A DNA stretch of 64,000 nt from an uncultured Erysipelotrichaceae bacterium. Lineage in GTDB: Bacteria; Bacillota_I; Bacilli_A; Erysipelotrichales; Erysipelotrichaceae. This document shows, one piece after another, positions 3,777 to 20,911 of this stretch. The translations under genes were made by a program, and so were the position numbers. Below the pieces are notes generated by a model, which searched no databases, was not told the origin of the DNA, and was given only the letters and a program-made list of their open reading frames with translations. Location: positions 27,061 to 91,060 of the forward strand of contig CAYJNO010000004.1 in assembly GCA_964371715.1 (NCBI GenBank). Direction: 5' to 3'. The stretch's first letter is position 1, and each line of letters starts with the position of its first letter.

Positions 3777-4950
3777 TTGGAAACAGGTTAAATTAGGGGA
3801 AGTTTGTGATGTTAAAGGTGGAAAAAGACTGCCGAAAGGTGAAGTGTTAACATCAAAAACTTCAGCACACCCCTATATTAAAATTAAAGATATAAAGACT
3901 ACTAAGCATTTAGAATTAGACCGTTCATTTGAGTATATAACAGAAGATATCCATACTAAGATAAGCAAATACATTGTTAATGTTAATGATATCATTATTT
4001 CTATTGTTGGTAGCATAGGTTTAGTGGCAAAAATCGGAGAAAGTTTAAATGAGGCAAATTTAACTGAAAACTGTGTAAAACTCATTAACAGAAAAAACAT
4101 AGATGAAAATTTTTTATATTATTTTCTTTCATCAAATATAGGGCAGGAAGAAATAAAAAAAGGAACTGTTGGAGCTGTTCAAGCAAAATTACCAATAAAG
4201 AATATCCAAGAAATAAAATTATTTCTCCCACCTATAGAAACCCAAAAGCAGATAGCAAAAATACTATCATCAATCGACGATAAAATCGAACTTAATAATA
4301 AGATAAACGATAATTTAGAAAAGCAAGCACAGGCAATTTTTAAATCGTGGTTTGTTGACTTTGAGCCTTTTGGTGGTGTTATTCCTGCTGATTGGAATGT
4401 CGGCACTGTTGGCGATGTCATTGAACTGCATGATGCAAAACGAGTGCCTTTGTCGGGTGCTGTTCGAGATAAAATGACAAATAAGTTATATCCCTATTAT
4501 GGTGCAGCTTCACTCATGGACTATGTTGATAACTATATCTTCGATGGCACTTATTTGTTGTTGGGTGAAGATGGAACAGTAGTGGATAGTCAAGGCTATC
4601 CTATTCTCCAATATGTTTGGGGCAAGTTTTGGGTAAATAACCACGCACACATTCTCACTGGTAAAAATGGTTTTACTGTTGAGAGTTTATATTTGCTATT
4701 TAAGCAAACACCCGTCAAATCAGTTGTGACAGGTGCAGTTCAGCCTAAAATTAGTCAAGGAAACCTAAAGTCCATAGAAGCCTTGATACCTGAATTAAGT
4801 GTGATGAATAAGTTTAATGACTTGATAAAGCCATTCTTCTTGAAGATTAAATCTAACAAAGAAGAAATTGGCAGATTATCTCAGCTTCGTGACACACTAC
4901 TACCAAAACTTATGAGTGGCGAAATAGATGTATCAAAAGTAGAGGTTTAA
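3766..4950 (+). CDS. hsdS: Type I restriction-modification specificity subunit S (two target-recognition domains)
   Basis: 394 aa. Two TRD-plus-conserved-spacer units are visible: LFLPPIETQKQIAKILSSIDDKIELNNKINDNLEKQAQAIF and IPELSVMNKFNDLIKPFFLKIKSNKEEIGRLSQLRDTLLPKLMSGEI. The start overlaps the hsdM stop. Confidence 0.9.
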   Translation: MKSNWKQVKLGEVCDVKGGKRLPKGEVLTSKTSAHPYIKIKDIKTTKHLELDRSFEYITEDIHTKISKYIVNVNDIIISIVGSIGLVAKIGESLNEANLTENCVKLINRKNIDENFLYYFLSSNIGQEEIKKGTVGAVQAKLPIKNIQEIKLFLPPIETQKQIAKILSSIDDKIELNNKINDNLEKQAQAIFKSWFVDFEPFGGVIPADWNVGTVGDVIELHDAKRVPLSGAVRDKMTNKLYPYYGAASLMDYVDNYIFDGTYLLLGEDGTVVDSQGYPILQYVWGKFWVNNHAHILTGKNGFTVESLYLLFKQTPVKSVVTGAVQPKISQGNLKSIEALIPELSVMNKFNDLIKPFFLKIKSNKEEIGRLSQLRDTLLPKLMSGEIDVSKVEV

Positions 4951-4980
4951 GCCACTAAATTATCGTTTATAGGAGGAATT

Positions 4981-5487
4981 ATGTTTTTAGATATTATTCG
5001 GGATATAGAAAATGCCTTAGAAAATGAAGTATATTTATCTGCACTGGCTTTATCTTTAACATTACCCGATATATGTGGGAAAGTAGAGTTTCCTACTATA
5101 AAGTCTACCAAACAACGATATATAAAGTGGTATGATAAGCACATTACAGCTAACAACTACCCCAATGACCACGACGAAGCATTAAAATTTAATGGCGAAA
5201 GATGTTACAAACTTAGATGTTCTTATTTACACGCAGGCGAAGTAGAACAATTTGATGGAATTGAAAATTTTGAGTTGATAATTTCAAATAAAACTCACCC
5301 TAGCGTTTATGGTGGTGGTTGTAGCACAATATTCATTGACCAAAACGGGACTAAAACTTACACAATACAACAAGATGTTGCACAACTATGTTTTTGGATT
5401 CACAGATGTGCAGAAGGTTTTTATAAAAAACATGAAAACAAAGATGCTTTTGAAAAAATAAATCCAATAATAAAAGTTAAATATTAA
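4981..5487 (+). CDS. Hypothetical protein, HEPN-like (Rx4H motif), embedded between hsdS and hsdR
   Basis: RBS GGAGG lies 5 nt upstream of the ATG. The 168-aa ORF fills the hsdS-hsdR gap. It has an N-terminal helix ALENEVYLSALALSLTLPDICG and the motif KLRCSYLH (R79-x4-H84, nt 5215-5232), typical of HEPN RNase folds. The family assignment was not verified. Confidence 0.5.
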   Translation: MFLDIIRDIENALENEVYLSALALSLTLPDICGKVEFPTIKSTKQRYIKWYDKHITANNYPNDHDEALKFNGERCYKLRCSYLHAGEVEQFDGIENFELIISNKTHPSVYGGGCSTIFIDQNGTKTYTIQQDVAQLCFWIHRCAEGFYKKHENKDAFEKINPIIKVKY

Positions 5488-5507
5488 ATTTGAAAGGAGC
5501 TGATGCA

Positions 5508-8500
5508 ATGGCATACACTGAAGCTAACTATGAAAATGCAATAATAGATTTATTCCAAAATCAATTTGGATACAACCATATATATGCACCAGAATTACCT
5601 CGTGATTACAGCAGTCCTTTGTATGAAGATATGCTTGTTTCTTGCCTTGCTCGAATAAACAAGAAACTACCACAAGATGCTATCAACGAAGCTATTTATA
5701 AGCTGAAAAACTTTGAGAGTGGTACACTAACTCAAAAGAATATTGTGTTTATGGACTACTTGCAAAATGGTGTCTCAGTTAGGTATTTTGAAAAAGGCGA
5801 AGAAAGAAATGCTATTGTTTATCTTATAGATTATCAAAATATAAACAATAACGATTTTACAGTAGCTAATCAATGGACATGTATTGAAAATTCAGAAAAA
5901 AGACCTGATGTACTACTTTTTGTAAATGGTTTGCCACTTGTAATGATAGAGCTTAAATCTCCATCAAGAGAAGAAACTGATGTGTCAGAAGCATATAGAC
6001 AACTAAGAAATTATATGTACGAGATACCATCTATGTTTTATTATAACGCAGTCTTGGTTATGAGCGACTTAACGACCTCTAAAGCAGGAACAATTACCAG
6101 TGGCGAAGATAGATTTATGGAATGGAAAACAACAGATGGAAACTATGAAAACACCCAGTATGCACAATTTGACACTTTCTTTGAAGGTATTTTTGAAAAG
6201 AATAGGTTTATAGATATTCTGAAAAACTTTATCTGTTTTAATGCTGATGGCGAGAAAACTTTTAAGATACTCGCAGGATATCATCAATATTTTGCAGTTA
6301 AAAAAGCTGTGGAAAAAGCAATGCAAGCTACTGAAACCGATGGTAAAGGTGGTGTGTTTTGGCATACGCAAGGTAGTGGTAAATCACTGTCAATGGTTTT
6401 CTATGCTCACTTGCTACAAGAGAAACTAAATTCTCCTACAATCGTAGTTATTACGGATAGAAATGATTTAGATGACCAACTGTATGGGCAGTTTTCAAGG
6501 TGTAGAGACTTTCTAAGACAAACACCAGTTCAAGCTGATAGTAGACCACATTTAAAAGAACTTTTAGCAGGTAGACAAGCTAACGGAATTATTTTCACAA
6601 CTATGCAAAAGTTTGAAGAAAATGATGTGCCTTTATCTGATAGAAGAAATATTATTGTTATGGCTGATGAAGCACATAGAGGACAATATGGACTTTCTGA
6701 AAAGGTAGAAATCAAAGAATATAAAGATGGCGAACTTACAGTAAAAACTAAAATTGGTGCTGCTAGAATTATTCGTGATAGCTTACCAAATGCTACATAC
6801 ATTGGCTTCACTGGCACTCCTATTTCATCAAAAGACCGTAGCACTCGTGAAGTGTTCGGCGATTACATAGATGTTTATGATATGACACAAGCCGTTGAAG
6901 ATGGAGCGACAAAGCCAGTTTATTATGAAAGCAGGGTTATTCATCTTAAACTAGATATTGATACTCTTGCTATGATAGATAATGAGTATGAAATTATGGC
7001 TGAAAATGCTGACGAATATGTTATTGATAAAAGCAAAAAAGAACTAGGAAAACTTGAAGTAATTTTGGGTGCTGATGAAACAATAGACTCGCTTGTCGGA
7101 GATATTTTAGACCACTATGAAAAGAATAGACAAAACTTACTTACTGGTAAAGCAATGATAGTTGCGTACTCTCGATCTATTGCAATGAAGATTTATAAAA
7201 AGATACTAGAACTTCGCCCTACTTGGGGAGAAACTGTTGGTGTTGTAATGACGCAGGGCAATAATGACCCCGAAGAATGGCGAGAGGTTATTGGAAATAA
7301 GGCGCATAAAGATGAACTGGCAAGAAAGTTTAAGGACAATAATTCTCATATGAAAATCGCTATTGTCGTTGATATGTGGCTTACTGGTTTTGATGTTCCA
7401 TCACTTGCTACAATGTATGTTTACAAGCCGATGATAGGACACAATTTAATGCAAGCAATCGCTCGTGTAAATCGTGTGTTTAAGGAAAAAGAAGGTGGTT
7501 TAGTTGTTGACTATGTAGGTATAGCTTCTGCACTTCGTAGTGCGATGAATGAATACACTAAACGAGATAAAGCAAACTTTGGCGATACAGATATTTCTAA
7601 AATGGCATTCCCTAAATTCAAAGAGAAGTTATCTGTTTGTCGTGACTTCTTGCATGGGTTTAATTATCAAAACTTTATGACGGGAACTGACCTTGAAAAA
7701 GCAAAAACTATCAGTGGTGGTGTAAACTTCTTACTTGGAAAATCTGTACTTGAAACAGATTTAGAAGAAAAAGAAAAATCACAAAATAAATATATCAAAG
7801 AAGCCTTGCTACTTAAACAAGCATTATCCCTTTGTAGTTCTTTAGTTGATGAACACACAAGGTTTGAAGCAGCTTATTTTGAAGCTGTTAGAACAATGCT
7901 TATCAGACTTACTATTGGTGGAGGTGGAAAGAAATTCACACTACCCGAAGTTAATGAGCGAATAAATGAGCTATTGAAACATTCAATTCAAAACGAGGGT
8001 GTAATAAATTTATTCTCTGATGTGCAAAATGAATTTTCGCTATTTGACCCTAAGTTCTTAGAAGAAATTGCAAATATGAAAGAGAAGAATTTAGCAGTAG
8101 AGCTTTTGAAAAAACTTATAGCCGAGCAAGTGTCAATTTACAGAAGAACTAATGTAGTTAAAAGCGAAAAATTTTCTGATATGATACAAATGGCAATGAA
8201 TAAATATTTGAATGGTATGCTAACAAATGAAGAAGTTATACAGGAGCTTTTAAAACTAGCTAAAGATTTAGCAGAAGCAAATGCTGAGGGTGATAAACTA
8301 GGACTTACACCAGATGAACTTGCTTTCTATGATGCACTCACAAAGCCACAAGCAATAAAGGATTTTTATGAGAATGATGAACTTGTTTCTCTTACAAAAG
8401 AGCTAACAGAACTGCTTAGAAAAAATCGTTCTATTGATTGGCAAAAGAAAGAAACAGCAAGAGCTAGCATGAGAAAACTTGTTAAAAGACTTTTAAAAAA

Positions 8501-8600
8501 ACATAGATATCCACCAGAAGGAATGGATGATGCAGTTCTAAGTGTTATCAGTCAGTGCGAGCTTTGGACGGATAACATTATGACAATTAAAAAAAATTAA
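5508..8600 (+). CDS. hsdR: Type I restriction endonuclease subunit R
   Basis: The preferred start is ATG 5508 (MAYTEANYENA), 8 nt after AAAGGAG; the track start 5490 is a TTG. N-terminal nuclease motif: RPDVLLFVNGLPLVMIELKS (D..E.K). Helicase motifs: HTQGSGKSLSM (Walker A), MADEAHRGQ (DEAH) and QAIARVNR (motif VI). The C-terminal LTPDELAFYDAL is typical of HsdR tails. Confidence 0.95.
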   Translation: MAYTEANYENAIIDLFQNQFGYNHIYAPELPRDYSSPLYEDMLVSCLARINKKLPQDAINEAIYKLKNFESGTLTQKNIVFMDYLQNGVSVRYFEKGEERNAIVYLIDYQNINNNDFTVANQWTCIENSEKRPDVLLFVNGLPLVMIELKSPSREETDVSEAYRQLRNYMYEIPSMFYYNAVLVMSDLTTSKAGTITSGEDRFMEWKTTDGNYENTQYAQFDTFFEGIFEKNRFIDILKNFICFNADGEKTFKILAGYHQYFAVKKAVEKAMQATETDGKGGVFWHTQGSGKSLSMVFYAHLLQEKLNSPTIVVITDRNDLDDQLYGQFSRCRDFLRQTPVQADSRPHLKELLAGRQANGIIFTTMQKFEENDVPLSDRRNIIVMADEAHRGQYGLSEKVEIKEYKDGELTVKTKIGAARIIRDSLPNATYIGFTGTPISSKDRSTREVFGDYIDVYDMTQAVEDGATKPVYYESRVIHLKLDIDTLAMIDNEYEIMAENADEYVIDKSKKELGKLEVILGADETIDSLVGDILDHYEKNRQNLLTGKAMIVAYSRSIAMKIYKKILELRPTWGETVGVVMTQGNNDPEEWREVIGNKAHKDELARKFKDNNSHMKIAIVVDMWLTGFDVPSLATMYVYKPMIGHNLMQAIARVNRVFKEKEGGLVVDYVGIASALRSAMNEYTKRDKANFGDTDISKMAFPKFKEKLSVCRDFLHGFNYQNFMTGTDLEKAKTISGGVNFLLGKSVLETDLEEKEKSQNKYIKEALLLKQALSLCSSLVDEHTRFEAAYFEAVRTMLIRLTIGGGGKKFTLPEVNERINELLKHSIQNEGVINLFSDVQNEFSLFDPKFLEEIANMKEKNLAVELLKKLIAEQVSIYRRTNVVKSEKFSDMIQMAMNKYLNGMLTNEEVIQELLKLAKDLAEANAEGDKLGLTPDELAFYDALTKPQAIKDFYENDELVSLTKELTELLRKNRSIDWQKKETARASMRKLVKRLLKKHRYPPEGMDDAVLSVISQCELWTDNIMTIKKN

Positions 8601-8944: not shown

Positions 8945-11473
8945 ATGGATAAAACAGTATCATTTAAATGGGAATTAACAAAAAGAGCAATAGAAATAGA
9001 AGTAGATAAAATAGGTGATTCTAATTACTTATTTAATGAACAAATAAATCAAGTTGATAAAATTTGTAAAGAAATAATGAATTCTGGAGACAAGAATATA
9101 AACAAAGTAATTAGTGTAATTGGAGAAAGAGGAGCAGGTAAATCATCTTTACTTTTAAGTGCAAAATCTAAATTAGAAAGTAATGATGTTTATACTATTG
9201 GTCCAATAGACCCAGGTGTGTTTGATGATAAGTTAAATATACTAGAGCTAACATTAGCACACATTCACTCTATAGTTAAACGTAATAAAAATACATTTAG
9301 AGGGGAAAGTGCAGAATGTCAAAAAATTCATCTATATAATAGAATAAAATCAATTCTACAAGTTTTAAATAACATTAGAAGATGTCGTGAAGATTTTATC
9401 GAAAGTAATGATACTGATTATGTGTTAGATGATTATGATAAAAGAAGTAATTTCTCTGAATTATTAAAAGAGTTACTTGATATGTTTAGAGATTATATTA
9501 ATGCTACTAATAACAAACACTATAAACAAATTGCAATTATTATTGATGACTTAGATTTAGTAGGTAATAGTAGAATAGTCAATTTTTTAGAGGATATTAG
9601 AAAATATTTAATGAATAATGTGATTGTTGTTTTAGCTTATAGAGATATACAGCTACAAAATGCAATGAGTGAATATTTAATAAAAGAAAATGATGATCTA
9701 ATTAGAAATAAAATGATTGATACAAATGAGATAATAGCTCAATCTACAAAATATATAGATAAATTCTCACCACCTTCATCAAGAATTTATATGCCAAATC
9801 TTTCAATATCAGATAAATTTACAGTTTTAGATTTATTGGTAGGTATTAGTGATAGTAGTAAGAGTGAGTTAAAAGAATATTTAAAATTATATGGTTTAAA
9901 TGATGATTTACCGCTAAAAGAAGGTGTATTAGTTATCTTAAATAATCAATTGAGAATAAATCTTAATGCGATAGATGCAAGAGAAAGAAATATGAGCTTA
10001 TTACCTACTAATCTTAGAGGATATCTAGAACTTTTTAATTTAATATTTGAAAAAATGGAGGTTGTAAACTGCAAATCAAAAGATGATATTAAAGTGGCAT
10101 CTAAAAGTATTCTATTCAATATAGAGCTATTTAAAATATATATGCAAGAAAACTATAAGAATAGATTAACTAGTGCACAAATAACAATAATAAATGAATG
10201 GTCTAATTGCAATGTGGATATGAAAAATTACTTATTATATAAGAGTATGATTGATTCAAGTGAAAATTACATTGCTAGTCCATATTTTGGACAATTATTA
10301 GACTTGAGATTAGTTCAACCATTTAATGTTACTTTAGCTGATGTTTATATCGCATTAGAGGTATATAAAGACTTATCAAAAGAAGATCAAAATTATTATT
10401 TTATATATATTATAAAAATATTATATTCAATGGAACTCTCAAAAAATTATGTTAATTGGATATGTAGTGATTCTGAAGAGGATGGGGAAGTATTTTTAGA
10501 TTCATACTTAACAATCTTAAACTCTTATGTAATTCCGAATTATTGGATGGATGGGATCATGATCAACATTAGTAGAAATATAAGATATGATAATGGAAAC
10601 AAAAATGAAGTATTTGAAAATTTCTATAAAAATTGTGTATATAACCAAGTAACAGCATTAGGGTTAGTTAACAGAGGTGCAAGGCAAGAATTGACTTACA
10701 GTGTAGCAAAAGCAGATGATGATATCTTTGCTAATAGAAATTCAAGATTGGTAAATCCAAGAAACTCGAAAAGGATTTCTGCATTTAGATATCGCAAAAT
10801 ATTTTCATCAGATTATATTGAGTTTGAAAATGGTAGAAGTTATGAATATGACTTCTTTGGATTTATTGGAAGAAGAAGCTATTTAGAAGAGTCAAAGGCT
10901 AAATTATTATCTAATCAAGAAATGAAACTAAATTATGTTTTAACATCGTTATTTGATATAGACGTATTTATATCACAAAACTATTTCACTAATGACGAAA
11001 CGAATATAATTAACATAATCATAAAAAATATTGACAAATTATTTAATGGAGAAAGACTTGGTGATGAAGAAAATTCGAAAGCAAAAGATAGAAGGTTAGG
11101 TAATTTATCAAGTGAGATATTTACTAGTAGTATAAATTATGAAAATTTTTATTTAAATATAAGCTCAAATAATGAAACAACAGACAATAATAAGTATAGA
11201 GAAATATCGGATAGTCTGTATAATTTTATTAAACAAGAAAATATACAGCTAAAGAGGATTGTAAACAATATTGATAAAATTAAAAATAAACATGATTTAT
11301 TATCGTTTATTAAGCTAGAAACTCAAAAATTGAACAGTAAAAAATACAGAAATCAAATTTTAATATTAGATGAAATCAACGCTGTTTTAAATGCATCAGG
11401 AAAAAAACTATCAATTGAAATAAAGGAAAAATATAAATCTGTATTTAAAGAAATTTATAAAATTGATAACTAA
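8945..11473 (+). CDS. rdrA: Large P-loop NTPase (KAP/AAA-like), RADAR RdrA-like by size and gene context
   Basis: RBS GGGAGG. 842 aa. Walker A is VIGERGAGKSSLL (nt ~9121-9148) and Walker B is IAIIIDDLDLV (nt ~9531-9560). A long alpha-rich C-terminal region follows and there are no TM segments. The stop lies 1 nt before the ATG of the deaminase gene. The symbol is assigned from architecture, not from measured identity. Confidence 0.55.
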   Translation: MDKTVSFKWELTKRAIEIEVDKIGDSNYLFNEQINQVDKICKEIMNSGDKNINKVISVIGERGAGKSSLLLSAKSKLESNDVYTIGPIDPGVFDDKLNILELTLAHIHSIVKRNKNTFRGESAECQKIHLYNRIKSILQVLNNIRRCREDFIESNDTDYVLDDYDKRSNFSELLKELLDMFRDYINATNNKHYKQIAIIIDDLDLVGNSRIVNFLEDIRKYLMNNVIVVLAYRDIQLQNAMSEYLIKENDDLIRNKMIDTNEIIAQSTKYIDKFSPPSSRIYMPNLSISDKFTVLDLLVGISDSSKSELKEYLKLYGLNDDLPLKEGVLVILNNQLRINLNAIDARERNMSLLPTNLRGYLELFNLIFEKMEVVNCKSKDDIKVASKSILFNIELFKIYMQENYKNRLTSAQITIINEWSNCNVDMKNYLLYKSMIDSSENYIASPYFGQLLDLRLVQPFNVTLADVYIALEVYKDLSKEDQNYYFIYIIKILYSMELSKNYVNWICSDSEEDGEVFLDSYLTILNSYVIPNYWMDGIMINISRNIRYDNGNKNEVFENFYKNCVYNQVTALGLVNRGARQELTYSVAKADDDIFANRNSRLVNPRNSKRISAFRYRKIFSSDYIEFENGRSYEYDFFGFIGRRSYLEESKAKLLSNQEMKLNYVLTSLFDIDVFISQNYFTNDETNIINIIIKNIDKLFNGERLGDEENSKAKDRRLGNLSSEIFTSSINYENFYLNISSNNETTDNNKYREISDSLYNFIKQENIQLKRIVNNIDKIKNKHDLLSFIKLETQKLNSKKYRNQILILDEINAVLNASGKKLSIEIKEKYKSVFKEIYKIDN

Positions 11474-11474
11474 T

Positions 11475-13859
11475 ATGCAAAATGTTGATAGAATAATAAG
11501 AGTTATATATCGAGAATTATTTAGTAAAATTCTCGATAGTAACACAATAGAAAAGGATTTAAAAGTAGATTATAGTTTAAATAATACTGATTTTGTTAGG
11601 GATATTATTTATGCATATTTAAAAATATATCCAAATAACTATAATTATGAAGAAGTAAATATATTAGTTGAAAAAGTTAAAGATGAAATTAAGCATAAGT
11701 ATAATAATTTGAATCCACTATATATAATTATGCTTTATGCTAATGAAATATTACTAGTTGAATCAAATAGGCTCAAAGTTAAATTTGATGATTTATTTGA
11801 ATGGAATGGATTTATCACTAAAATAGATAGTAATATTTTTCAAGCTGCATTTTTACAAAATAGTAATGGTTTAAACTGTGAAACAGTTATAGAACATGAC
11901 AATGAAAGATTATATAATATTCTTAAAACTGGCTTATATGAAAACCATATGCATTTAAATGGTTCTGGATATTCATGGGAAATTAACTGGGATATACTAG
12001 TTTGTTCAAAGCCTTTTAATTATATAAAAAGGAAAATTAGTAAAAATATAAAATTAGCTAAATACGCTAATGAAAATTATTTAAGGATTGATAAAATCAA
12101 ATGTATAAGGTTATATCTAATATGGATAATATTAGGTAAAAAGAAAGAATACCATTTTGAAATTAGTAGAATATTAAAGAATAATTATAGATTTTACATG
12201 TATCAGGACTTAGATAAGCTTACAATATTATATGATTTATCGAAAGAATACTTTAAAAAACAATATGGAGATAGTCAAGAAGTTAATAAAAAAGAGAGAA
12301 ACTTTTTAATAGAAATATTTAAATGTTTTAATAATGGTCAATTAAATAATTTCGACAAAAATCTATTAAACATATATCTAGCAGAATTAAGTGAGTTAAA
12401 GTTCATTTTTGTTCAAGATAATATTGGTATGGGATTTAGTAAGTTTAAAGATTGTGAAATGATTAAAAGTGATTTCATGGATAAAAAAGAAGATAAGCTT
12501 TTATTAGAATCTGTATTAGAAAAATATTATAGTGAAGGTGTTGTTTTAGCTATAGAAGTAAGAATAGCTCCAAAAGATAAAACAGGACTAATTAAAAAAA
12601 TAAAGGAACTAGAAAAAGTAAATGAGAAAGTTTACAAAAAGTATTTAAGAAGAAATAAGTGTTTAAAGAAAATCAAAATTGGAATTATAATACATTATAT
12701 AAAGATGAGTGAAAAATTTACAAATAATGGTTGTAGACATTCAAATTTAAGGGGTAGAATTAAAAAAGCTGCAGTAGGTCTTGATCAGTATTTTGAAAGT
12801 GGATATAAATCTGATATTAAAGTTGTCGGTATAGATGCTGCAAATGTTGAAATAGATTGTCCACCTGAAGTATTAGCACCTATATTTAGGAAACATAGAG
12901 CAAATACTTCCAGTAAATATGATTTAGGTTTTACATATCATGTAGGTGAAGAATTTTTAACTTTAGCAAGTGGGTTAAGAGCAATAGATGATTTAATTGA
13001 ATTTTTTAATTTCAAATCTGGTGATAGGTTAGGGCATGCTTTAAGCCTTGGGTTAGATCCTGATAAATACTTTTCTACTAAAAGAAATCTAATTAATACA
13101 ACATTAGAAAGCCATGTAGATGATCTTGTGTTTTTACATAAAATAAATTGTGCTTTAGGTGAAGCAAATTTATGTTTCAAATTAGAACAAGAATTTATTA
13201 AATATGCTTCAAAATTATTTGTAAATACTTTAGAAAGTCTTCCATTAATTACAGATTATAGAGATAGCTATGCGCTAAGAGGAAATGATCCAAAGTATTT
13301 AGATAATAACATATGTTCTGAAAATCAACCTGTATTTATGTGTGAGAAAGACCATATCTATAATTTCAACAATTCTAATCATAATGAAGCTTTTAAAAAT
13401 AAGCTTGCCCATAAATTATTGGGATTATATCATTATAATGAAGACTTATATAATACAGGTAAAACTTCTCTTTCTATAAATGTTGAAGATTTCTATATTA
13501 ATGCAGTTAAAAATGTTCAAAAATATATGATTAAAAGAGTACATAACATTGGTATCTCAATAGAAATCAATCCATCATCAAATAAGAAAATATCATTTAT
13601 TGACAAGTATAGTGATTTAACAGTATACAAACTTAATAATTATAAACTACCTAATGCAGATAATACAATTAATAACTTACATGTAAGTATTAATACAGAT
13701 GATAGTGGAATTTTTGAAACTAACTTATCTACTGAATATTCATACATTGCTCTATCTTTGATAAAAGATGGTGTTGATAAAGAAATAGTTTATGAATATA
13801 TAGAATATTTAATTAAGATGGGAAAAGATGCTTCATTTTTAAATAAGACTATAAGGTGA
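11475..13859 (+). CDS. rdrB: Divergent adenosine deaminase-fold protein with large insertions, RADAR RdrB-like
   Basis: The preferred start is ATG 11475; the track start 11463 is a TTG overlapping the upstream gene. All four metal/catalytic signatures of the adenosine/AMP deaminase superfamily occur in the correct order. They are ENHMHLNGS (HxH, nt ~11944-11966), TYHVGEEF (HxGE, nt ~12939-12956), DRLGHAL (nt ~13025-13042) and SINTDDSGIF (NTDD, nt ~13690-13710). At ~795 aa it is about twice the size of housekeeping Add. Confidence 0.65.
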   Translation: MQNVDRIIRVIYRELFSKILDSNTIEKDLKVDYSLNNTDFVRDIIYAYLKIYPNNYNYEEVNILVEKVKDEIKHKYNNLNPLYIIMLYANEILLVESNRLKVKFDDLFEWNGFITKIDSNIFQAAFLQNSNGLNCETVIEHDNERLYNILKTGLYENHMHLNGSGYSWEINWDILVCSKPFNYIKRKISKNIKLAKYANENYLRIDKIKCIRLYLIWIILGKKKEYHFEISRILKNNYRFYMYQDLDKLTILYDLSKEYFKKQYGDSQEVNKKERNFLIEIFKCFNNGQLNNFDKNLLNIYLAELSELKFIFVQDNIGMGFSKFKDCEMIKSDFMDKKEDKLLLESVLEKYYSEGVVLAIEVRIAPKDKTGLIKKIKELEKVNEKVYKKYLRRNKCLKKIKIGIIIHYIKMSEKFTNNGCRHSNLRGRIKKAAVGLDQYFESGYKSDIKVVGIDAANVEIDCPPEVLAPIFRKHRANTSSKYDLGFTYHVGEEFLTLASGLRAIDDLIEFFNFKSGDRLGHALSLGLDPDKYFSTKRNLINTTLESHVDDLVFLHKINCALGEANLCFKLEQEFIKYASKLFVNTLESLPLITDYRDSYALRGNDPKYLDNNICSENQPVFMCEKDHIYNFNNSNHNEAFKNKLAHKLLGLYHYNEDLYNTGKTSLSINVEDFYINAVKNVQKYMIKRVHNIGISIEINPSSNKKISFIDKYSDLTVYKLNNYKLPNADNTINNLHVSINTDDSGIFETNLSTEYSYIALSLIKDGVDKEIVYEYIEYLIKMGKDASFLNKTIR

Positions 13860-13950
13860 TTAGCGAGAATAAAAAATAATTTTATGAATATGATATAATA
13901 ATATAGTGAAATAAGTAATGTATGTAATTAAGGTTAAAAGGAGATCATAT

Positions 13951-15135
13951 ATGAGCGAATCAAATTCTTCACATGTAAAGGGTCTACATAATTTTTTAGC
14001 TAATATCGATTGTTTAAATAAAATATATGAACATACAAATAGATTTAACATATTTGATGTGCTAAAAATAGCAAAGACTGAAATCAGACATAGTAATACT
14101 ATTGCATGGTTGTTAGACCCAAATGAAAATCATGGATTAAATGAAAAGATTTTATTAGGTCTAGTTAAAAATATTGCTAGTCACTTAGATGTTGAATCAA
14201 GTATTAAGTTATTATCTATAGATTTAAATGATTTTAAGGTATATAGAGAAAAGTATAATATAGATATTTTGCTAGTTTCAACAAAGAATAAAGTTGTTAT
14301 ATGCATTGAAAATAAAGTTTGTTCATATGAACATGGTGATCAATTAAACTATTACAAAGGGATTGTTGAAAATAGTTATAAAGACTTTAATAAATACTAC
14401 ATTTACTTAACAGCAAGAAATGATGAACCAAGTGATGGTGAAAATTGGAAAAAATTTTCTTATGAAAAACTGGTTAATATAATTGATGAAGCAATAAAAG
14501 ATAATGAAATAATATCAGTTGAAGTTTATTATTTTTTAAAAAATTACATAGAAATAGTGAGGTATAATGTTTTGGAAAATAAAGAATTAATAGATATTTG
14601 TCAAAAGATTTATAATGATCATTCAAAAGCTTTGGATTTAATTTATGAATATAAGCCAGATCATAGAGAAGAATATAAAACATTTATTTTAGATTATTTG
14701 AAAAGATGTGATTTATTTAATAGTCGTTTTAACTTAAATGAAGGTTGTTCTAATAATGAGCATATTAGATTTACATCATATATACTTGATGAGAAAATTC
14801 CTCAATCATCAACAAAAACAAGTGGGTGGGATACGAAAAATCATTATTTTTATGAAATATATAATGATGGTTTTTCAATATATTTACAACTTGCGATCAG
14901 CAAAGGTAGCTTAAGTACGGATGAAGCAAATAATAAGTTTGAAAAAATAATTAAAAAATTAAAATGTAAAAATAATAAAGTTAATTGGAAATGGAAAGTT
15001 TTAATAAAATATGATGTTTGTGATTATAGGGGATATGAAGATGTTGCAGATGCTAAAAAAGATATTAAATTGGAATTAGATAAAAATTTGAAAAAAATAA
15101 TTGAACTTGAAAATAATAACTTTAAAACTTTATAG
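13951..15135 (+). CDS. PD-(D/E)xK nuclease superfamily protein (PDDEXK_4-like)
   Basis: The preferred start is ATG 13951 (MSESNSS), 7 nt after AAAGGAG; the track start is 13918. N-terminal signature: FNIFDVLKIAKTEIRHSNTIAWLLDPNENHGL. Nuclease core: DILLVSTKNKVVICIENKV (D...E.K). A possible own promoter TGATATAAT lies at 13891-13899. Confidence 0.6.
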   Translation: MSESNSSHVKGLHNFLANIDCLNKIYEHTNRFNIFDVLKIAKTEIRHSNTIAWLLDPNENHGLNEKILLGLVKNIASHLDVESSIKLLSIDLNDFKVYREKYNIDILLVSTKNKVVICIENKVCSYEHGDQLNYYKGIVENSYKDFNKYYIYLTARNDEPSDGENWKKFSYEKLVNIIDEAIKDNEIISVEVYYFLKNYIEIVRYNVLENKELIDICQKIYNDHSKALDLIYEYKPDHREEYKTFILDYLKRCDLFNSRFNLNEGCSNNEHIRFTSYILDEKIPQSSTKTSGWDTKNHYFYEIYNDGFSIYLQLAISKGSLSTDEANNKFEKIIKKLKCKNNKVNWKWKVLIKYDVCDYRGYEDVADAKKDIKLELDKNLKKIIELENNNFKTL

Positions 15136-15198: not shown

Positions 15199-15430
15199 AC
15201 TATGAATTATTTGCTTATTAATAAGTACCTATTAATATAAAATAGTACTTTTTTATCGAAAACTGCTACAGATAAAATATAAATAGACAAAATTTAATCA
15301 ACAGCTAAAATATTTACTAAGTCAGGTAGAATAAAATTTGTGTTTTAATATAAATTACATAAACGAACGGGTGAATGATAAAAAAATAAAAGCAATATCA
15401 TTTTGTACACAAAAACATATATCATCAAAA

Positions 15431-15473
15431 GTTATGTCTGATCTATTGACATAACTTTTATTATTAGTATAAT
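15431..15473 (+). promoter_or_regulatory. Near-consensus sigma-A promoter with a perfect 8-bp inverted repeat over the -35 (candidate operator)
   Basis: TTGACA (15446-15451), 16 nt, then TATAAT (15468-15473). The inverted repeat GTTATGTC-N9-GACATAAC (15431-15455) overlaps the -35. The site is ~50 nt upstream of ATG 15523. Confidence 0.55.
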
Positions 15474-15522
15474 AACACTCATAAATGAACATAAAAACAT
15501 ATATCAAATAAAGGGGGGTTGA

Positions 15523-16098
15523 ATGCACACAAATATTAAAGGAATAGGTAATTTAATTGGTGGTCAGATTATTAATAGAGTTGAGGCTAAACGTGATGAT
15601 TTTGAATTTGGTGAAATTAAAATACTAGCTCCCAAAGCTATTACAAATGGTGTAATTGATCACAGTTCACTAACAAGTCTAAAAATTAAAACAATGCCAG
15701 ATGAAAAGAAATTAACTAAAGAAGGTGACATTGTCTTAAAGTTATCTCAACCATATGAGGCAGCATATATTAATAAAGATGATGAAGGTTTATTAGTTAC
15801 ATCATTTTGTATTATTTTAAGGAATATTCAAAAAGATGAAATTAGTCCAAACTTTATACTTACATTTATTAACTCTGAATTATATAAAGAACAAGTATTA
15901 GAGTTAACATCAGGTGCAAGTGTTCCTTTATTAACTAAAGGCTTAATAGAAAAGATAACACTAGATGTACCTACTATTATTGCTCAATCTATTATAGTAG
16001 GTAAATCTGACTCTATTAAAAGAAAAGAAGCTTTGTTTAATGAAGTAATTAAGTTAGAAAAAATGAAACTTGAAAATATGCTTAGAGGTGAAGAATAA
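15523..16098 (+). CDS. Half-size HsdS-like specificity protein (single target-recognition domain)
   Basis: RBS GGGGGG. 191 aa. One TRD is followed by the S-subunit conserved helix region LDVPTIIAQSIIVGKSDSIKRKEALFNEVIKLEKMKLENML. Its stop overlaps the next ATG (TAATG). Confidence 0.7.
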   Translation: MHTNIKGIGNLIGGQIINRVEAKRDDFEFGEIKILAPKAITNGVIDHSSLTSLKIKTMPDEKKLTKEGDIVLKLSQPYEAAYINKDDEGLLVTSFCIILRNIQKDEISPNFILTFINSELYKEQVLELTSGASVPLLTKGLIEKITLDVPTIIAQSIIVGKSDSIKRKEALFNEVIKLEKMKLENMLRGEE

Positions 16099-17423
16099 TG
16101 AACACTAAATTTGATGAAGTACTATGGAAATGTATGGATGCATTAAGAGGTAATTTTGCATATGAAGATTGTAATAGAATCTTAATCTATATTATATTTT
16201 TAAAATATATTATAGATAATAAAAAGATTGATTTAAATAATGAATCCTTTGAAACATTCTTAAATGCTCAAAGAATGTTTGATAAAGGATTATTAGAAAA
16301 AGATATTATAAATGATTTAAATTATATGATAGAAAATCAATATAATATGGCAAATGGTGCTTTAAGTGATTTCTCTAATACTTACTTTAAAGTTCTAGAT
16401 TTTAATAATAAAGTTAATATCATTGAAAAATTAAAAGTTGAATCATTTGTTAATGAAAGTGATGCTGTTATGGATTCATTAAAAATGATTTTATTAGAAC
16501 ATGCATCAAGCTTTTCAAGAATAGTAGGTGATGAAATATCAAGTAATTCAATATCATTATTAACTAAAGAATTATTAGGTTTAAAAGATCATGAAAGCTT
16601 AATAGATTTAACTTATGGTTTAGGATTATCATCATTAGAAATAACTAATGATAGTAATGAACTTATAGGTTATGAAATAGATAGATCTATTGCCACAATG
16701 GGTATCATGTTATTAATTATTTCAGAAAAGTCTAATTTTAAACTATACAATGAAGATGCTACAAATAGTGATGAATATGAAAACTACTTTGATAAAGTAG
16801 TAGCATATCCACCACTTGGTATTAAAGTAAAAGATTTTGATTTAAATAAATCTAACTTGTTAAAAGAATTTAATTTGCCTGAAAAAAATTGTAATCTAGA
16901 AGTCTTTATTGCACTTAGTGCAATAAAGAAACTTAAAGAAACGGGTATTGCAATAATTGCTATATCATCTAATATCTTATTTTCATCAACAGTAGTTGAA
17001 AAAAGTTTTAGAGAATTAATAGTAAATAATTATTTAAGTAGTGTTATTACATTACCACCATTATATTATGGTACTAATGCAGATATTAACTTAATTATCT
17101 TAGAGAAAAATCGTATTAGTGATAACGTTACCTTTATAGATGCAAGTAATAATGAACATTATGATTTTATCGTTAAAGATAAAAAATCACAAAATGAATT
17201 ATCAAATGATGCTATAAGTAAAATTGTAAGTATAGTTAATGAAAAACAAACCTTTAAAGGTATTTCTTATACTTGTAGTGTTAGTGATTTAAAACGAAAT
17301 GATTACACTTTATCACCATCAAAATACACAAAAATGAAGAAACAAAGAGAAGTATTATCTAATGAAGAAATTGATAGTAGATTAAGTGAATTATATGAAG
17401 AAATAAAAAGAATATTAAAATAA
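16098..17423 (+). CDS. HsdM-like gamma-class methyltransferase homologue with non-canonical motifs I and IV
   Basis: The HsdM_N-like N-terminus is LWKCMDALRGNFAYEDCNRILIYIIFLKYIID. Motif I reads IDLTYGLGLSS instead of DPxCGSGG. The motif II acidic residue is kept (GYEID). Motif IV reads VVAYPPLG (nt 16801-16820) instead of NPPF/Y. The C-terminal DLKRNDYTLSPSKY is typical of HsdM. Confidence 0.65.
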   Translation: MNTKFDEVLWKCMDALRGNFAYEDCNRILIYIIFLKYIIDNKKIDLNNESFETFLNAQRMFDKGLLEKDIINDLNYMIENQYNMANGALSDFSNTYFKVLDFNNKVNIIEKLKVESFVNESDAVMDSLKMILLEHASSFSRIVGDEISSNSISLLTKELLGLKDHESLIDLTYGLGLSSLEITNDSNELIGYEIDRSIATMGIMLLIISEKSNFKLYNEDATNSDEYENYFDKVVAYPPLGIKVKDFDLNKSNLLKEFNLPEKNCNLEVFIALSAIKKLKETGIAIIAISSNILFSSTVVEKSFRELIVNNYLSSVITLPPLYYGTNADINLIILEKNRISDNVTFIDASNNEHYDFIVKDKKSQNELSNDAISKIVSIVNEKQTFKGISYTCSVSDLKRNDYTLSPSKYTKMKKQREVLSNEEIDSRLSELYEEIKRILK

Positions 17424-17437
17424 AAAGGAGGAAATAA

Positions 17438-18142
17438 ATGAATTATTTTATAAAAGAAAACAAATGGTTAACGCTTATCTCATTGCCACTTATTATATGG
17501 AGTGTCTTATTTATCACAATGCCATTTATTACTTACTATAATATCAATTTATTTAGTAGTAGCTATATGATGCTATATGCAGTATATTTAGGATCTTATA
17601 TTATTGTGGTAGGTATTACATTAAATAACAAAAAAGCAATGAAAATTAAACAAGCAGAAAAAGAAAGACTACTTATTGTCGAATCATTAGCTAAAATTAA
17701 GATAAATGAACCGAAAAATATCTTGACTACATTTACATCAATGAATGCAGCTAATAATATTAATAATAATGATATAGTTATCATTAAAGAGCGTTTATCT
17801 AATCTAATTTATAGCATAAATAATAATAAACTTATATTAAGTACATCAAATGATAAAAGACTAAATCATTATATTGACCAGTTTAACAAGACTACAAACA
17901 CCATTGAAGAAACAATAGCTAAATTAGAATTATTTATCAATAATTCTATAGAAAATAATAAGACAATTTTTGAACTTGAAAAAGCTAAACAATTATTCAA
18001 TGAGTCACCAAGTTTTACAAGATCTTTAAAGGTACAAAAATTTAAACATGAAATGATAGATCTTACACAAGATTTTGAAGAATTAACTTTATTAACTGAA
18101 GAATGTTCTAAAGTAAATTATAAGATTAATATTGATAATTAA
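17438..18142 (+). CDS. Two-TM membrane protein with a cytoplasmic coiled-coil-like domain, function unknown
   Basis: RBS AGGAGG; the start is 14 nt after the M-like stop. Two hydrophobic helices are present: LTLISLPLIIWSVLFITMPF and MMLYAVYLGSYIIVVGITL. A ~170-aa charged and Asn-rich helical region follows. Confidence 0.6.
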   Translation: MNYFIKENKWLTLISLPLIIWSVLFITMPFITYYNINLFSSSYMMLYAVYLGSYIIVVGITLNNKKAMKIKQAEKERLLIVESLAKIKINEPKNILTTFTSMNAANNINNNDIVIIKERLSNLIYSINNNKLILSTSNDKRLNHYIDQFNKTTNTIEETIAKLELFINNSIENNKTIFELEKAKQLFNESPSFTRSLKVQKFKHEMIDLTQDFEELTLLTEECSKVNYKINIDN

Positions 18143-18358
18143 TGATAAGTAAAACCTTCACTTTATGTTCACTTATCTCATATTGAAAATGTAATATAAG
18201 CTATGCTATACTGTGTAAGTTGATTATTTACAACAGATTAAAAGAAGTTTTTAAGATATAGTTATATAATACTTTGCTCATGTTGTGATCATGTTTTATT
18301 AATGATATACAACGATTTGTAAAGTACTATTTTTGTAAGTAATCTATTGGAGGTTATT

Positions 18359-20911
18359 ATGAAGAAAGTATCACATATATATGATGGTAAAGAATCATTT
18401 ATAAATAAATTAAATGAAAATAAAATAGATTTTTATGCTCCATTACTTGTAAGAATTGTAACTGCTAAAAGTTCAAGAGATAATGCTTTAGCTTTAGCAA
18501 AACAAATTAAAGAAATATTACCGAATGGAATGATTGTTGGAGCAACATCTTCAGTAAGTGTTATTCATAATGGAGAAGCAGTTGATGATGCTACATTAAT
18601 TGTGGTAGAACAATATACTAAGTTAATATTAAGTGTTAGAAAACTACCTTTTATAGATAAAAATATTGAAACAATTGCTAAACAAGTACATGACATTAGT
18701 ATGGAAATTGGAAGTACAAAAACAACAATTAATTTATTATTTAGTAATAAATTTTGGGATGGATTTAAATTTGTACGTGAATTTGATAAATTAACACCTC
18801 AAATGAAACTTGCAGGTGGGATGGCTGGAGAAATGTCTCATTTCTATGGCGATAGTTATTTGTTTGATGAAAATGGTGTTTATGATGAAGAGATGTTTAT
18901 TTTTGCAGCTACAGCTGAAGAAGAATATCATTTCACACAAGCATTTACACCACATGATAAATTAAACGATGATATTCATGAAATAACAAAAGTTGATGGA
19001 CATTTCATCAAAGAAATAGATAATGAACCAGCAGGAGATTGGATGCTTAATTATCTTAATTTAAATAAAGATAATGTAGCACATTATGATTTTGTTACTA
19101 CTCAAACTGATTTTGATACAACCTTTGAACAATTAAATAATGATTACTTAACAAGGTTTCCTTTATTGTTAGAACATGATGGTACAGGATTTTATAATAG
19201 TTATGATAGTAAAGAAAATAGTTTATCTGCATATCATGCTAATTTAATGGTTAAAGAAAAATTTAAAGTAGGGTATGTAACACCAATTGCAGCTATGAAT
19301 GCTACTTATGAACTTATTTCTGCAACATATAGTGCACCTATTGAATTAGTATTTGCTTATTCTTGTGTTGTACTTAGAATGTATTTATCAAACGTAGCTA
19401 AATGGGCATTATCACCATTTGAACAATTTGATGTCTCAGGAATGTTCATGATGGGTGAATTAGTCTATCAAAATGGAAGAAATGAATATCATCAAGGTGC
19501 ATGTGTTCTACAATGCATTGCTGAAAGTGAAGTATATGCAATACCAAATTTAAAAACATTAGAACAAATAGAACTTGTAGAAACTGATTTAGACTTTATT
19601 TTAAAAGCCATTGAAAAACAATCACAAACTACAAAAAGTGGAGCTAAATATGCTGAAAAACTAGAAAAATATCGTCGTGGTGGAAGCATTGAAAGCTACT
19701 ATAAAGATCCTGATTTTAATATGCCAAACATGCTACAATATCGAGTAGATAATGATACTTTTAAAATGAATAAAGTTTGTTTAGTAGAAATTCAAACAGC
19801 TGATGCTACAGTTGCATTTGCTGGACAAGAAGCATATAACTTATCATGTGTTGAAATGATAAATGAAATTGGAGAAATATATAAAGATAATCCAGTATAT
19901 AAACTATCAAGGATGTATGCATTTAACTATAAATGTATTGTTATTTCATGTCTTGATTATGTAAGTAATATGGATTTTATTGAGTATTGTAAAGAGCTTC
20001 ATAAACAATATGGATATGCCAAATCTCGATGCCATGACATTACAAGTGTAAGTCGCTTTGTAGTAGTATTAAATCAAGAAAATCCTGTAGAAGAGGGTAT
20101 GAAGTATTTATTTTCAAATTCTGATAAAATGGAAACATTCTTTATTAGTAGTACATCATCACAAGATTATGATGTTAGTAATGAAGAATTAAGAGCCTTA
20201 GATTTACTTAATAGAGCAATAGAAAATAAATTAGTTGTTCCATATTATCAAGGTATACATAATAATCAAACAAATAAAATTGATAAATATGAAGCTCTAA
20301 TGAGAATAATTGACTTAGATGATAAAGTATATTCTCCATATGCATTTATTGATATATCTCAAAAATATAAATTATATACGCATATCAGTAGATTAATGAT
20401 TGAACAAGTTTTACATGACTTTAAGGATAGAGATGAACAAGTATCAATAAATATATCAGTAAATGATATTGAATCATCAACATTTAGGGAATGGTTTATT
20501 AATGCTTTATCTAATTTTAATAAGCCAGAGAGAGTTATTGTAGAACTATTAGAGAGTGATGATTTTAAACAACTAGATAATTTCTTTGAGTTTGTAAATG
20601 AAATCAAAAGCCTAGGTTGTAAAATTGCTATTGATGATTTTGGTTCAGGATATTCAACATTTACAACAGTAATGCAATTAGAGCCAGATTATATAAAAAT
20701 AGATGGTAGTATTGTAAGTCAGGTTGCTAATAATAGTAAATCAATTATGGTTCTTGATACAATTCAATACTTAACTAAAAAATTAGAAGCAAAAGCTGTC
20801 GCTGAATTTGTTGAAAATGTAGATATTCAAAATATTTTAAATAAATATGAAATATCATATTCTCAAGGCTATTATTTTGCAAAACCTGTTCCTTTTGATG
20901 AATTGCCTTAA
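18359..20911 (+). CDS. FIST domain / degenerate GGDEF-like / EAL domain c-di-GMP phosphodiesterase
   Basis: The preferred start is ATG 18359, 5 nt after GGAGG; the track start 18347 is a TTG. EAL signatures: YEALMRII, IAIDDFGSGYSTF, YIKIDGS, AVAEFVEN, SQGYYFAKP. The N-terminal ~400 aa looks FIST-like and the central region lacks a GG(D/E)EF motif. Confidence 0.75.
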   Translation: MKKVSHIYDGKESFINKLNENKIDFYAPLLVRIVTAKSSRDNALALAKQIKEILPNGMIVGATSSVSVIHNGEAVDDATLIVVEQYTKLILSVRKLPFIDKNIETIAKQVHDISMEIGSTKTTINLLFSNKFWDGFKFVREFDKLTPQMKLAGGMAGEMSHFYGDSYLFDENGVYDEEMFIFAATAEEEYHFTQAFTPHDKLNDDIHEITKVDGHFIKEIDNEPAGDWMLNYLNLNKDNVAHYDFVTTQTDFDTTFEQLNNDYLTRFPLLLEHDGTGFYNSYDSKENSLSAYHANLMVKEKFKVGYVTPIAAMNATYELISATYSAPIELVFAYSCVVLRMYLSNVAKWALSPFEQFDVSGMFMMGELVYQNGRNEYHQGACVLQCIAESEVYAIPNLKTLEQIELVETDLDFILKAIEKQSQTTKSGAKYAEKLEKYRRGGSIESYYKDPDFNMPNMLQYRVDNDTFKMNKVCLVEIQTADATVAFAGQEAYNLSCVEMINEIGEIYKDNPVYKLSRMYAFNYKCIVISCLDYVSNMDFIEYCKELHKQYGYAKSRCHDITSVSRFVVVLNQENPVEEGMKYLFSNSDKMETFFISSTSSQDYDVSNEELRALDLLNRAIENKLVVPYYQGIHNNQTNKIDKYEALMRIIDLDDKVYSPYAFIDISQKYKLYTHISRLMIEQVLHDFKDRDEQVSINISVNDIESSTFREWFINALSNFNKPERVIVELLESDDFKQLDNFFEFVNEIKSLGCKIAIDDFGSGYSTFTTVMQLEPDYIKIDGSIVSQVANNSKSIMVLDTIQYLTKKLEAKAVAEFVENVDIQNILNKYEISYSQGYYFAKPVPFDELP

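Follow-up and report, generated by a model that had tools for sequence, protein, structure and literature searches.

In a 64,000-nt stretch of DNA from an uncultured Erysipelotrichaceae bacterium (contig CAYJNO010000004.1, positions 27,061–91,060; this whole stretch is called the window), an operon was analysed that encodes a half-size HsdS-like protein (S'), a short HsdM-like protein (M') and a protein with two transmembrane helices (2-TM). The S'/M' pair is a widespread, unnamed two-gene module which appears to be undescribed. Judged from its sequence, M' looks like a catalytically degenerate paralogue of HsdM, and the pair like a DNA-recognition module rather than a working methylase. Two direct copies of a conserved box bracket the promoter of the pair, and we give roughly even odds (ca. 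0.5) to the reading that a non-catalytic (S')2(M')2 complex binds these boxes and controls its own operon. The window locus is an atypical member of the family, in which the boxed S'/M' pair drives an ORFan 2-TM protein instead of a type I restriction-modification (R-M) system.

The S'/M' pair and its family

The features of the locus, in window positions, were as follows.

15405–15424, plus strand: box 1, GTACACAAAAACATATATCA, the upstream box copy, ending 21 nt before the -35 hexamer
15427–15459, unstranded: perfect 12-bp inverted repeat with a 9-nt spacer, overlapping the -35 hexamer; arms AAAAGTTATGTC (15427–15438) and GACATAACTTTT (15448–15459)
15446–15473, plus strand: sigma-70-type consensus promoter (TTGACA at 15446–15451, 16-nt spacer, TATAAT at 15468–15473)
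15487–15506, plus strand: box 2, GAACATAAAAACATATATCA, a direct repeat of box 1, starting 14 nt after the -10 hexamer, just upstream of the ribosome-binding site
15523–16098, plus strand: S', half-size HsdS-like protein of 191 amino acids (aa), from the list of open reading frames (ORFs)
16098–17423, plus strand: M', short HsdM-like pseudo-methyltransferase of 441 aa, from the ORF list, profile matches and a structure model
16605–16634, plus strand: motif I of M', DLTYGLGLSS, against DPACGSGGMF in the window hsdM at 2274
16797–16820, plus strand: motif IV of M', VVAYPPLG (Y237-P-P-L), against ILANPPFN in the window hsdM
17424–17437, plus strand: intergenic gap of 14 nt with an AGGAGG ribosome-binding site (17426–17431), read directly
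17438–18142, plus strand: 2-TM, ORFan protein of 234 aa with a helical C-terminal part, from the ORF list and searches

A preliminary description, made from the sequence alone, had reported three tightly coupled genes behind a near-consensus promoter. Both points held: S' and M' overlapped in a TAATG (16096–16100), M' and 2-TM were separated by 14 nt containing AGGAGG, and the promoter was a perfect TTGACA-16-TATAAT (score 12/12, the top promoter match of the region). The inverted repeat noted at the -35 hexamer was indeed perfect, with its second arm overlapping the hexamer, but it was 12 bp long, not 8 bp; every other sequence-level statement of the description was confirmed. This repeat is of doubtful significance, because 37 comparable inverted repeats (≥12 nt within 30 nt) were counted in the AT-rich window (27% G+C) and because it was locus-specific, with no conservation in the related loci compared. 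As an operator it was rejected, being unconserved and ordinary for such DNA. Inside the M' gene (16903–16929), a perfect inverted repeat of 13 bp with its arms 1 nt apart was also seen, and an 18-nt repeat, 89% complementary, inside the S' gene (15963–16008); such repeats are common in the AT-rich window.

M' matched Pfam N6_Mtase (2e-29) and, weakly, HsdM_N. A profile of its family matched EcoR124 HsdM at 5e-34, and its NCBIfam hsdM score was far under the cutoff (59.7 vs 242.75). An AlphaFold (AF2) model of M' (pLDDT, the predicted local distance difference test, 88; pTM, the predicted template-modelling score, 0.86) contained the three-part HsdM fold of N-terminal helical part, Rossmann catalytic part and C-terminal helix. 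It superposed over its full length on HsdM structures (Foldseek TMq 0.71–0.78; 3LKD, 7VRU/7VS4), PacII M1 and M2 being among the best structural matches.

The catalytic motifs were degenerate on this well-kept architecture, as had been described, and alignment with the window HsdM and other canonical HsdMs (19–26% identity) agreed. M' keeps the D...GxG of motif I and the acid of motif II (GYEID), and its motif X is lost (GDEISSNS vs GEFYTPAC in the window hsdM). Among its seven closest relatives (52–56% identical) the catalytic position of motif IV reads Y/F/I/L/F/F/V, and motif extraction from the window subfamily gave [Y/H/T/F/I]PPL. In the bulk of the family, motif IV is [IV]F[VI]D[PAGS]P[LI], with the D kept, motif I takes the form DFxSGxGxST and no motif X remains; L or I stands in place of the motif IV aromatic throughout the family. 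At a further locus (L084), M' has no GxG in motif I and IDVSY as motif IV. We regard this pattern as a pseudoenzyme signature, because lineages lost different catalytic and S-adenosylmethionine (SAM)-binding parts yet kept the fold. The earlier idea of a DNA-recognition module without methyl transfer thus gained support from the loss of the motif IV N/D and of motif X, and from the pairing of M' with a single-domain S'.

S' consists of one target-recognition domain (TRD) and one C-terminal conserved helix, as first described, and in this it departs from classical HsdS, which carries two diversifying TRDs in one polypeptide. It matched PADLOC Specificity_I (3e-13), and its family profile matched solved HsdS structures (1e-18) and the half-S homodimer Esub1 (E=1.5e-6). 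The TRD motifs GGQI..R, PK.I, GDI..KLS.PY.AA and LV.SFC.I.R are invariant across the family and present in the window S'. In the one pair compared, the window and L001 copies of S' were 58% identical, against 55% for M', so that S' is as conserved as M'. TRDs of classical HsdS proteins are extremely diverse and their specificity diversifies (PMC5100572). Since the S' TRD is, unlike these, conserved family-wide and as conserved as M', its sequence implies one fixed DNA target. The C-terminal helices of S' and M' are both nearly invariant, as expected for the M–S helical bundle of classical enzymes. A Pfam scan gave no helix-turn-helix (HTH) match in S', M' or 2-TM.

A profile search of 1.84 billion representative proteins found 139 clusters (50% identity) with E<1e-30, mostly of 425–455 aa; some lower-scoring members among them carry canonical motifs, and the family size is put at ~100 or more clusters. 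In a second search, E<1e-130 was reached by more than 70 clusters (90% identity), all of them unnamed. The genes are at present labelled ‘N-6 DNA methylase’ and ‘restriction endonuclease subunit S’, and no description of the family was found in full-text literature or in the NCBIfam or PADLOC models. Scanning GTDB species genomes with an alignment of the M' subfamily gave one partial match, at a contig end (L013), and tblastn of M' and a broad-family member against 72,556 plasmids gave only canonical HsdM at ≤26% identity.

The contexts of S'/M' loci were taken from a metagenome scan and look-ups. At every locus examined the two genes were overlapping or tightly coupled, and each of the seven close relatives of M' was preceded by an S' of 190–195 aa; in none of them did a 2-TM gene follow. 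The usual order was box 1, promoter, box 2, gene X, S', M', canonical HsdM, HsdS, inserts and HsdR. In three relatives on long contigs, M' was followed after 12–14 nt by a canonical 606-aa HsdM, then HsdS, variable inserts and HsdR; the 606-aa HsdM of L001 (one copy aligned) had DGASGTGGM and NPPYG. A complete canonical type I R-M system lay directly downstream of S'/M' in 9 of 12 informative architectures. The R-M families varied, and so did the downstream HsdR (EcoR124_C at L024, EcoEI_R_C at L021, T1RH-like_C at L076 and L078). The other three were the window, L016, where the gene after M' encodes a ResIII-like P-loop protein, and L084, where a GC-rich terminator-like hairpin, read from the sequence, is followed by unrelated genes. 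The term ‘R-less’ used in the preliminary description therefore suits L084 and the window, where no HsdR follows the operon and a separate complete type I system lies at 2274–8600, but not the family as a whole.

The inserts in the headed R-M operons included Fic-HTH, GmrSD, extra half-S and shufflon recombinase genes. Second-line genes of the GmrSD, HTH-Fic, and SLFN/AlbA_2 plus CHAT-like kinds were seen at L019:13703–15808, L021:12047–12961 and L006:5263–8745; they come after hsdS, and before hsdR where hsdR was seen (L021, L006), and would share the boxed promoter. At L076:10181–13450 and L078:11351–12316, tyrosine-recombinase or MrpR-like recombinase genes and extra partial hsdS genes lay in the type I loci downstream of S'/M', an arrangement that suggests phase-variable, shufflon-type specificity of the canonical system beside an invariant S'.

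Gene X encodes ~130–150 aa and lies upstream of S' in most members of the broad family; neither the window nor its subfamily has it. It carries the conserved motifs KCGHVGR and PRVKHHHKDAIR, and it had no match in Pfam, NCBIfam, PHROGs or PDB. It was located as follows.

L019:6989–7405
L021:6919–7350
L024:3745–4158
L075:9008–9403
L076:6288–6710
L084:1315–1767

Boxes bracketing the promoter

The box has the consensus GAAC-N12/13-TCR (19–20 bp), and two direct copies bracket the promoter, a feature that the preliminary description does not mention. The box was found equally placed about the promoter at 18 distinct loci including the window, and both copies were readable in 16 of them (box 1 alone at L020 and L022), so that 34 boxes were compared. 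G1, C4 and the terminal TC were invariant in all 34, position 3 was A in 33, and the A/T-rich middle was tolerant of change. The length was 20 nt in the window subfamily and 19 nt elsewhere. The ends form a TGA/TCA dyad and the inner halves differ (GAACAT vs ATATATC). Box 1 ended 4–30 nt upstream of TTGACA, and box 2 started ~10–18 nt after the -10 hexamer, at the transcript start. When seven upstream regions were aligned, the boxes and the TTGACA/TAtaaT hexamers were the only conserved islands; the hexamers were present in 15 loci. The boxes were kept across subfamilies that had lost different catalytic and SAM-binding motifs. The window locus thus has the features that mark the family: a half-S with the conserved TRD, a degenerate M' in the 425–455-aa range coupled to it, and two boxes bracketing the promoter.

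The exact box pattern was found nowhere else in loci L001–L018, and the 64-kb window held no copy besides the two at the promoter, even with one mismatch allowed; a relaxed pattern gave only weaker matches elsewhere. As a negative control, 2.9 million viral contigs were searched and 39 single-box matches were obtained, none paired and none adjoining S'/M', a number which by our own estimate is about that expected by chance. Neither the locus nor the window as a whole gave a match to Rfam, so the boxes and the 5' untranslated region are not a known RNA element. The half GAACAT is what we take to be one LexA (Cheo) half-site, and a LexA box was rejected for want of a GTTC partner at the required spacing.

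Two further observations concern the promoter region. By eye, ~12 of 18 loci were seen to have a third TGA-type half-site, which follows the TCA end of box 1 at a distance of 9–10 nt; the regions concerned were window 15425–15452 and those of L001, L016, L017, L019, L021, L024, L027, L075 and L076. The resulting TCA-N9/10-TGA dyad sometimes coincides with the -35 TTGACA, and the nearest TGA at the window locus is 14 nt off. The other observation is a distant short-HsdM/half-S pair of L015 (P0029) with QPPF as motif IV and a TTGACT promoter. This pair has a different TRD (20% identical), and its promoter was surrounded by three copies of a different, palindromic box, AATCTAG-N2-CTAGATT (L015:1290–1400); on these sequences L015 is possibly a single point of operator/TRD covariation.

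A proposed controller and its alternatives

In the reading to which we give even odds, S' and M' would assemble like a type I methyltransferase core, as (S')2(M')2, and the invariant TRD of S' would give this complex one fixed DNA target. It would bind the two promoter boxes without methylating them and would control the very strong promoter between them. Repression is the most probable mode, because box 2 spans about +5 to +32 relative to the transcript start. Co-transcribed downstream genes would come under the same control, usually a type I R-M system and here the 2-TM ORFan. S' and M' are the only conserved candidate binders, since the boxes persist in the window subfamily, which has no gene X. 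The possible covariation at L015 fits such a controller, and so does Esub1, a half-S protein that forms an S-like homodimer and that its authors proposed to be a DNA-binding factor (PMC11754733).

Several points weigh against the controller. Binding, repression and complex formation are all read from conservation. The number of boxes in the window alone was not above chance (2 found vs 2.5 expected, one mismatch allowed); their significance comes from position and cross-locus conservation and not from that count. The box has only weak dyad symmetry: its ends are TGA...TCA, but GAAC at one end faces ATATATC at the other. A half-S homodimer would be expected to favour a true palindrome and a shorter spacer; engineered or natural half-S variants recognise palindromic bipartite sites (e.g. 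GAA-N7-TTC and TCA-N8-TGA). The spacing between box 1 and box 2 was ~60–93 bp without conserved helical phasing, which argues against a fixed DNA loop, and such a loop was rejected. Weak symmetry, long span and variable spacing together do not fit a simple type I geometry. The broader family keeps D in motif IV (DPPL, DAPI), and residual activity is possible there. A complex of 440 + 190 aa is also costly as a repressor, which suggests that the type I architecture is kept for an additional reason. A host factor might conceivably bind the boxes instead.

The DNA groove of any type I methyltransferase core is the binding site of Ocr and ArdA, DNA mimics of phages and plasmids. An extension of the controller, which we hold to be distinctly doubtful, makes the S'/M' core a transcriptional sensor of these anti-restriction proteins: in uninfected cells the complex would occupy the boxes and repress the promoter, and Ocr or ArdA would remove it from them, so that the operon would be de-repressed. 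De-repression would then yield extra type I R-M, GmrSD, Fic, SLFN/AlbA or CHAT proteins or, at the window locus, a 2-TM toxin. On this view, the retention of a whole type I core just to bind DNA would make sense.

Among known systems, the closest functional analogues of S'/M' are the C proteins and the methyltransferase-repressors (C.PvuII, M.SsoII, M.EcoRII), in which the first product of the operon binds repeated boxes at its own promoter and thereby sets the expression of the R-M genes downstream (PMC12707154); for S'/M' such binding is a prediction. Those regulators are either small proteins of the HTH type or active methylases with a fused HTH domain, whereas S'/M' looks like a dead type I core with no HTH. 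In Mycoplasma gallisepticum, a type I hsd operon is known to have a C-family gene upstream (PMC12707154). With classical M2S1 enzymes and their half-S variants, S'/M' shares the HsdM fold, a TRD plus conserved helix, gene coupling, the expected (S/2)2M2 assembly and a bipartite-looking box. It differs in lacking the catalytic and SAM motifs, in its undiversified TRD, and in a weakly symmetric box whose ends are 12–13 nt apart instead of 6–8. PacII-type M1M2S systems (N6-methyladenine plus N4-methylcytosine; PMC5100572, PMC9613975) likewise have two hsdM-like genes in one type I operon, but there M1 and M2 are close paralogues, both active (NPPF, NPPY), served by one full-size two-TRD S, whereas neither motif is present in M', which is paired with a half-S of its own. 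Esub1 (SpyM3_0890 of Streptococcus pyogenes; PDB 8VSQ/8VSR) resembles S' as a stand-alone half-S crystallising as an S-like homodimer; it is encoded away from any M gene, shows no clear HsdM binding, carries an inserted helix to which the phage protein paratox binds, and was described with no cognate pseudo-methylase or promoter boxes (PMC11754733). Matches to MADS (mad1–mad8) were generic (mad2 2e-20, mad5 3e-11), comparable to those of generic Type I models, and no mad model matched any of the four flanking proteins tested.

The nature of 2-TM bears on the remaining alternatives. Hydrophobic segments were found at residues ~10–32 and 42–63, followed by a KK-rich stretch, and a single-sequence AF2 model was all helical with low confidence (pLDDT 55), in agreement with the earlier description of a 234-aa product with two N-terminal transmembrane helices and a helical remainder. 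At this pLDDT the model was too poor for a fold search. With its good ribosome-binding site and an uninterrupted 234-codon frame, long for AT-rich DNA, the gene is probably real. Among 5.8 billion clustered proteins the only homologue of 2-TM was itself, and it matched nothing in Pfam (SLATT included), PADLOC or NCBIfam; a PHROG match at E=0.0018 was marginal and judged to be noise. The preliminary description had proposed 2-TM as the effector of a conserved triplet, or else as an accessory of the upstream RADAR genes. Neither proposal was supported: in a neighbourhood comparison set beforehand this ORFan had no counterpart at any related locus, and besides the lack of a match to SLATT (the RdrC/D type of RADAR accessory) or another family, the PDC-S26 gene, a 388-bp spacer and the operon's own consensus promoter separate 2-TM from rdrB. 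2-TM is a one-off co-transcribed passenger, not conserved with S'/M'.

These data also bear on a guard of the Ronin kind, in which S'/M' would mimic the core attacked by Ocr or ArdA and free or activate a toxic partner, here 2-TM, the boxes being only autoregulatory. In E. coli, Ronin (RonA-HsdS-HsdM) has HsdS and HsdM without HsdR, and a small transmembrane toxin that kills on Ocr or ArdA independently of catalysis; it also needs an upstream non-coding region whose role is unknown (Silas et al., bioRxiv 10.1101/2023.04.06.535777). The likeness to the window lies in an S/M pair not used for host-protective methylation, a linked membrane protein, no hsdR in the operon and a defence-island setting. 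M' keeps the whole HsdM fold though catalysis is gone, the transmembrane protein is translationally linked to it, and type I R-M, RADAR and PDC-S26 genes share the island. Compared by description and not by sequence, RonA is a 61-aa single-transmembrane toxin that is always linked, whereas the window has a 234-aa, two-helix ORFan absent from all relatives and no small transmembrane ORF upstream; among the called genes of related loci, on which no transmembrane prediction was run, no other small transmembrane protein was noticed. Ronin HsdS is full-size and its HsdM has an intact NPPF (F287G serving as the knock-out), whereas S' has one TRD and M' is naturally dead. Moreover, a decoy needs neither a family-wide invariant TRD nor a DNA box, and the S'/M' family usually heads a complete, working type I R-M system in the same operon, whereas most E. 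coli genomes with Ronin lack type I R-M. Ronin is the closest concept to the idea first put forward for the window, and S'/M' does not share its defining features. Such a guard is doubtful for the family; abortive infection of this kind is conceivable at the window locus, and the comparative evidence does not point there.

The other alternatives are less probable still. M'/S' might recruit a neighbouring HsdR (here 5490–8600) to a fixed, never methylated site, as a second specificity independent of modification. The recurrent linkage to complete type I R-M operons would suit this, and so would the retained N-terminal domain of M', which in classical HsdM contacts HsdR. It is nonetheless very improbable: the target would lie in the module's own promoter at every locus, making recruitment self-destructive, the linked HsdRs belong to different families (EcoR124_C, EcoEI_R_C, T1RH-like_C), which argues against a specific co-evolved contact, and no hsdR is present in the operon of the window or L084. 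An active, atypical methyltransferase that methylates the boxes, for epigenetic promoter control or as a second host-protection mark, is improbable. The window M' does retain the GxG of motif I and the acid of motif II, and the broader family keeps D at the catalytic position of motif IV (DPPL, DAPI); however, this position is Y/F/I/L/V in the window subfamily, motif X (FYTP) is gone, the motif IV aromatic is L or I throughout, and the L084 subfamily has lost the GxG too while the boxes persist. In type I enzymes tested, a change of NPPF/NPPY to APPA left the subunit concerned with little or no methylation activity (PMC5100572). A decaying, functionless type I remnant next to a spurious or unrelated ORF, for which the degenerate motifs and the lack of hsdR in the operon might speak, is barely credible; it is already contradicted by the conservation data: more than 100 diverged clusters have ORFs that are intact and constant in length, and non-catalytic residues, coupling, promoter and boxes are conserved.

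Setting and significance

The S'/M' locus sits at the end of a defence island, whose other genes and downstream neighbour are the following.

136–1893: ORF with a helicase C domain (282 aa, possibly a fragment) and a DUF4357 protein (299 aa), at the island start
2274–8600: complete canonical type I R-M system (HsdM 500 aa, HsdS 394 aa, HsdR 1036 aa with T1RH-like_C)
8945–13859: RADAR-like pair (RdrA 842 aa, AAA/STAND-like; RdrB 798 aa, adenosine-deaminase-like)
13918–15135: PDC-S26 PD-(D/E)XK (PDDEXK_4) nuclease gene (PADLOC, 8e-106), between RADAR and the S'/M' operon
18347–20911: FIST-EAL cyclic di-GMP phosphodiesterase-like gene, the next gene downstream of the locus, followed by a two-component system and an ABC/FtsX transporter

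No S'/M' pair or box was found ahead of the 2274–8600 operon, in which a 168-aa ORF (4981–5487; phrog_18591, of unknown function) lies between hsdS and hsdR. The RADAR is a divergent one, as RdrB scored far under the NCBIfam RdrB cutoff (135 vs 800 bits); rdrB starts at TTG and overlaps rdrA by 11 nt. The PDC-S26 gene, a single-gene PADLOC candidate, was rejected as an effector of S'/M', being absent upstream of the pair at every related locus with a readable upstream gene.

Type I R-M is thought to be controlled mainly after translation, and the only dedicated transcriptional controller of such a system that we know of is a C-family gene in one Mycoplasma species. Surveys of methylomes and defence systems would wrongly count S'/M' genes among orphan or second type I methylases, and the 19–20 bp box, together with its putative fixed protein partner, could be put to use as a portable repressor–operator pair. 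If the controller reading is true, many gut, rumen and other bacteria place a dead type I methyltransferase core ahead of type I R-M operons as a sequence-specific controller. There would then be one universal operator, a new class of pseudoenzyme and a new regulation of R-M and neighbouring defence genes, and possibly a link between anti-restriction proteins and the induction of defence.

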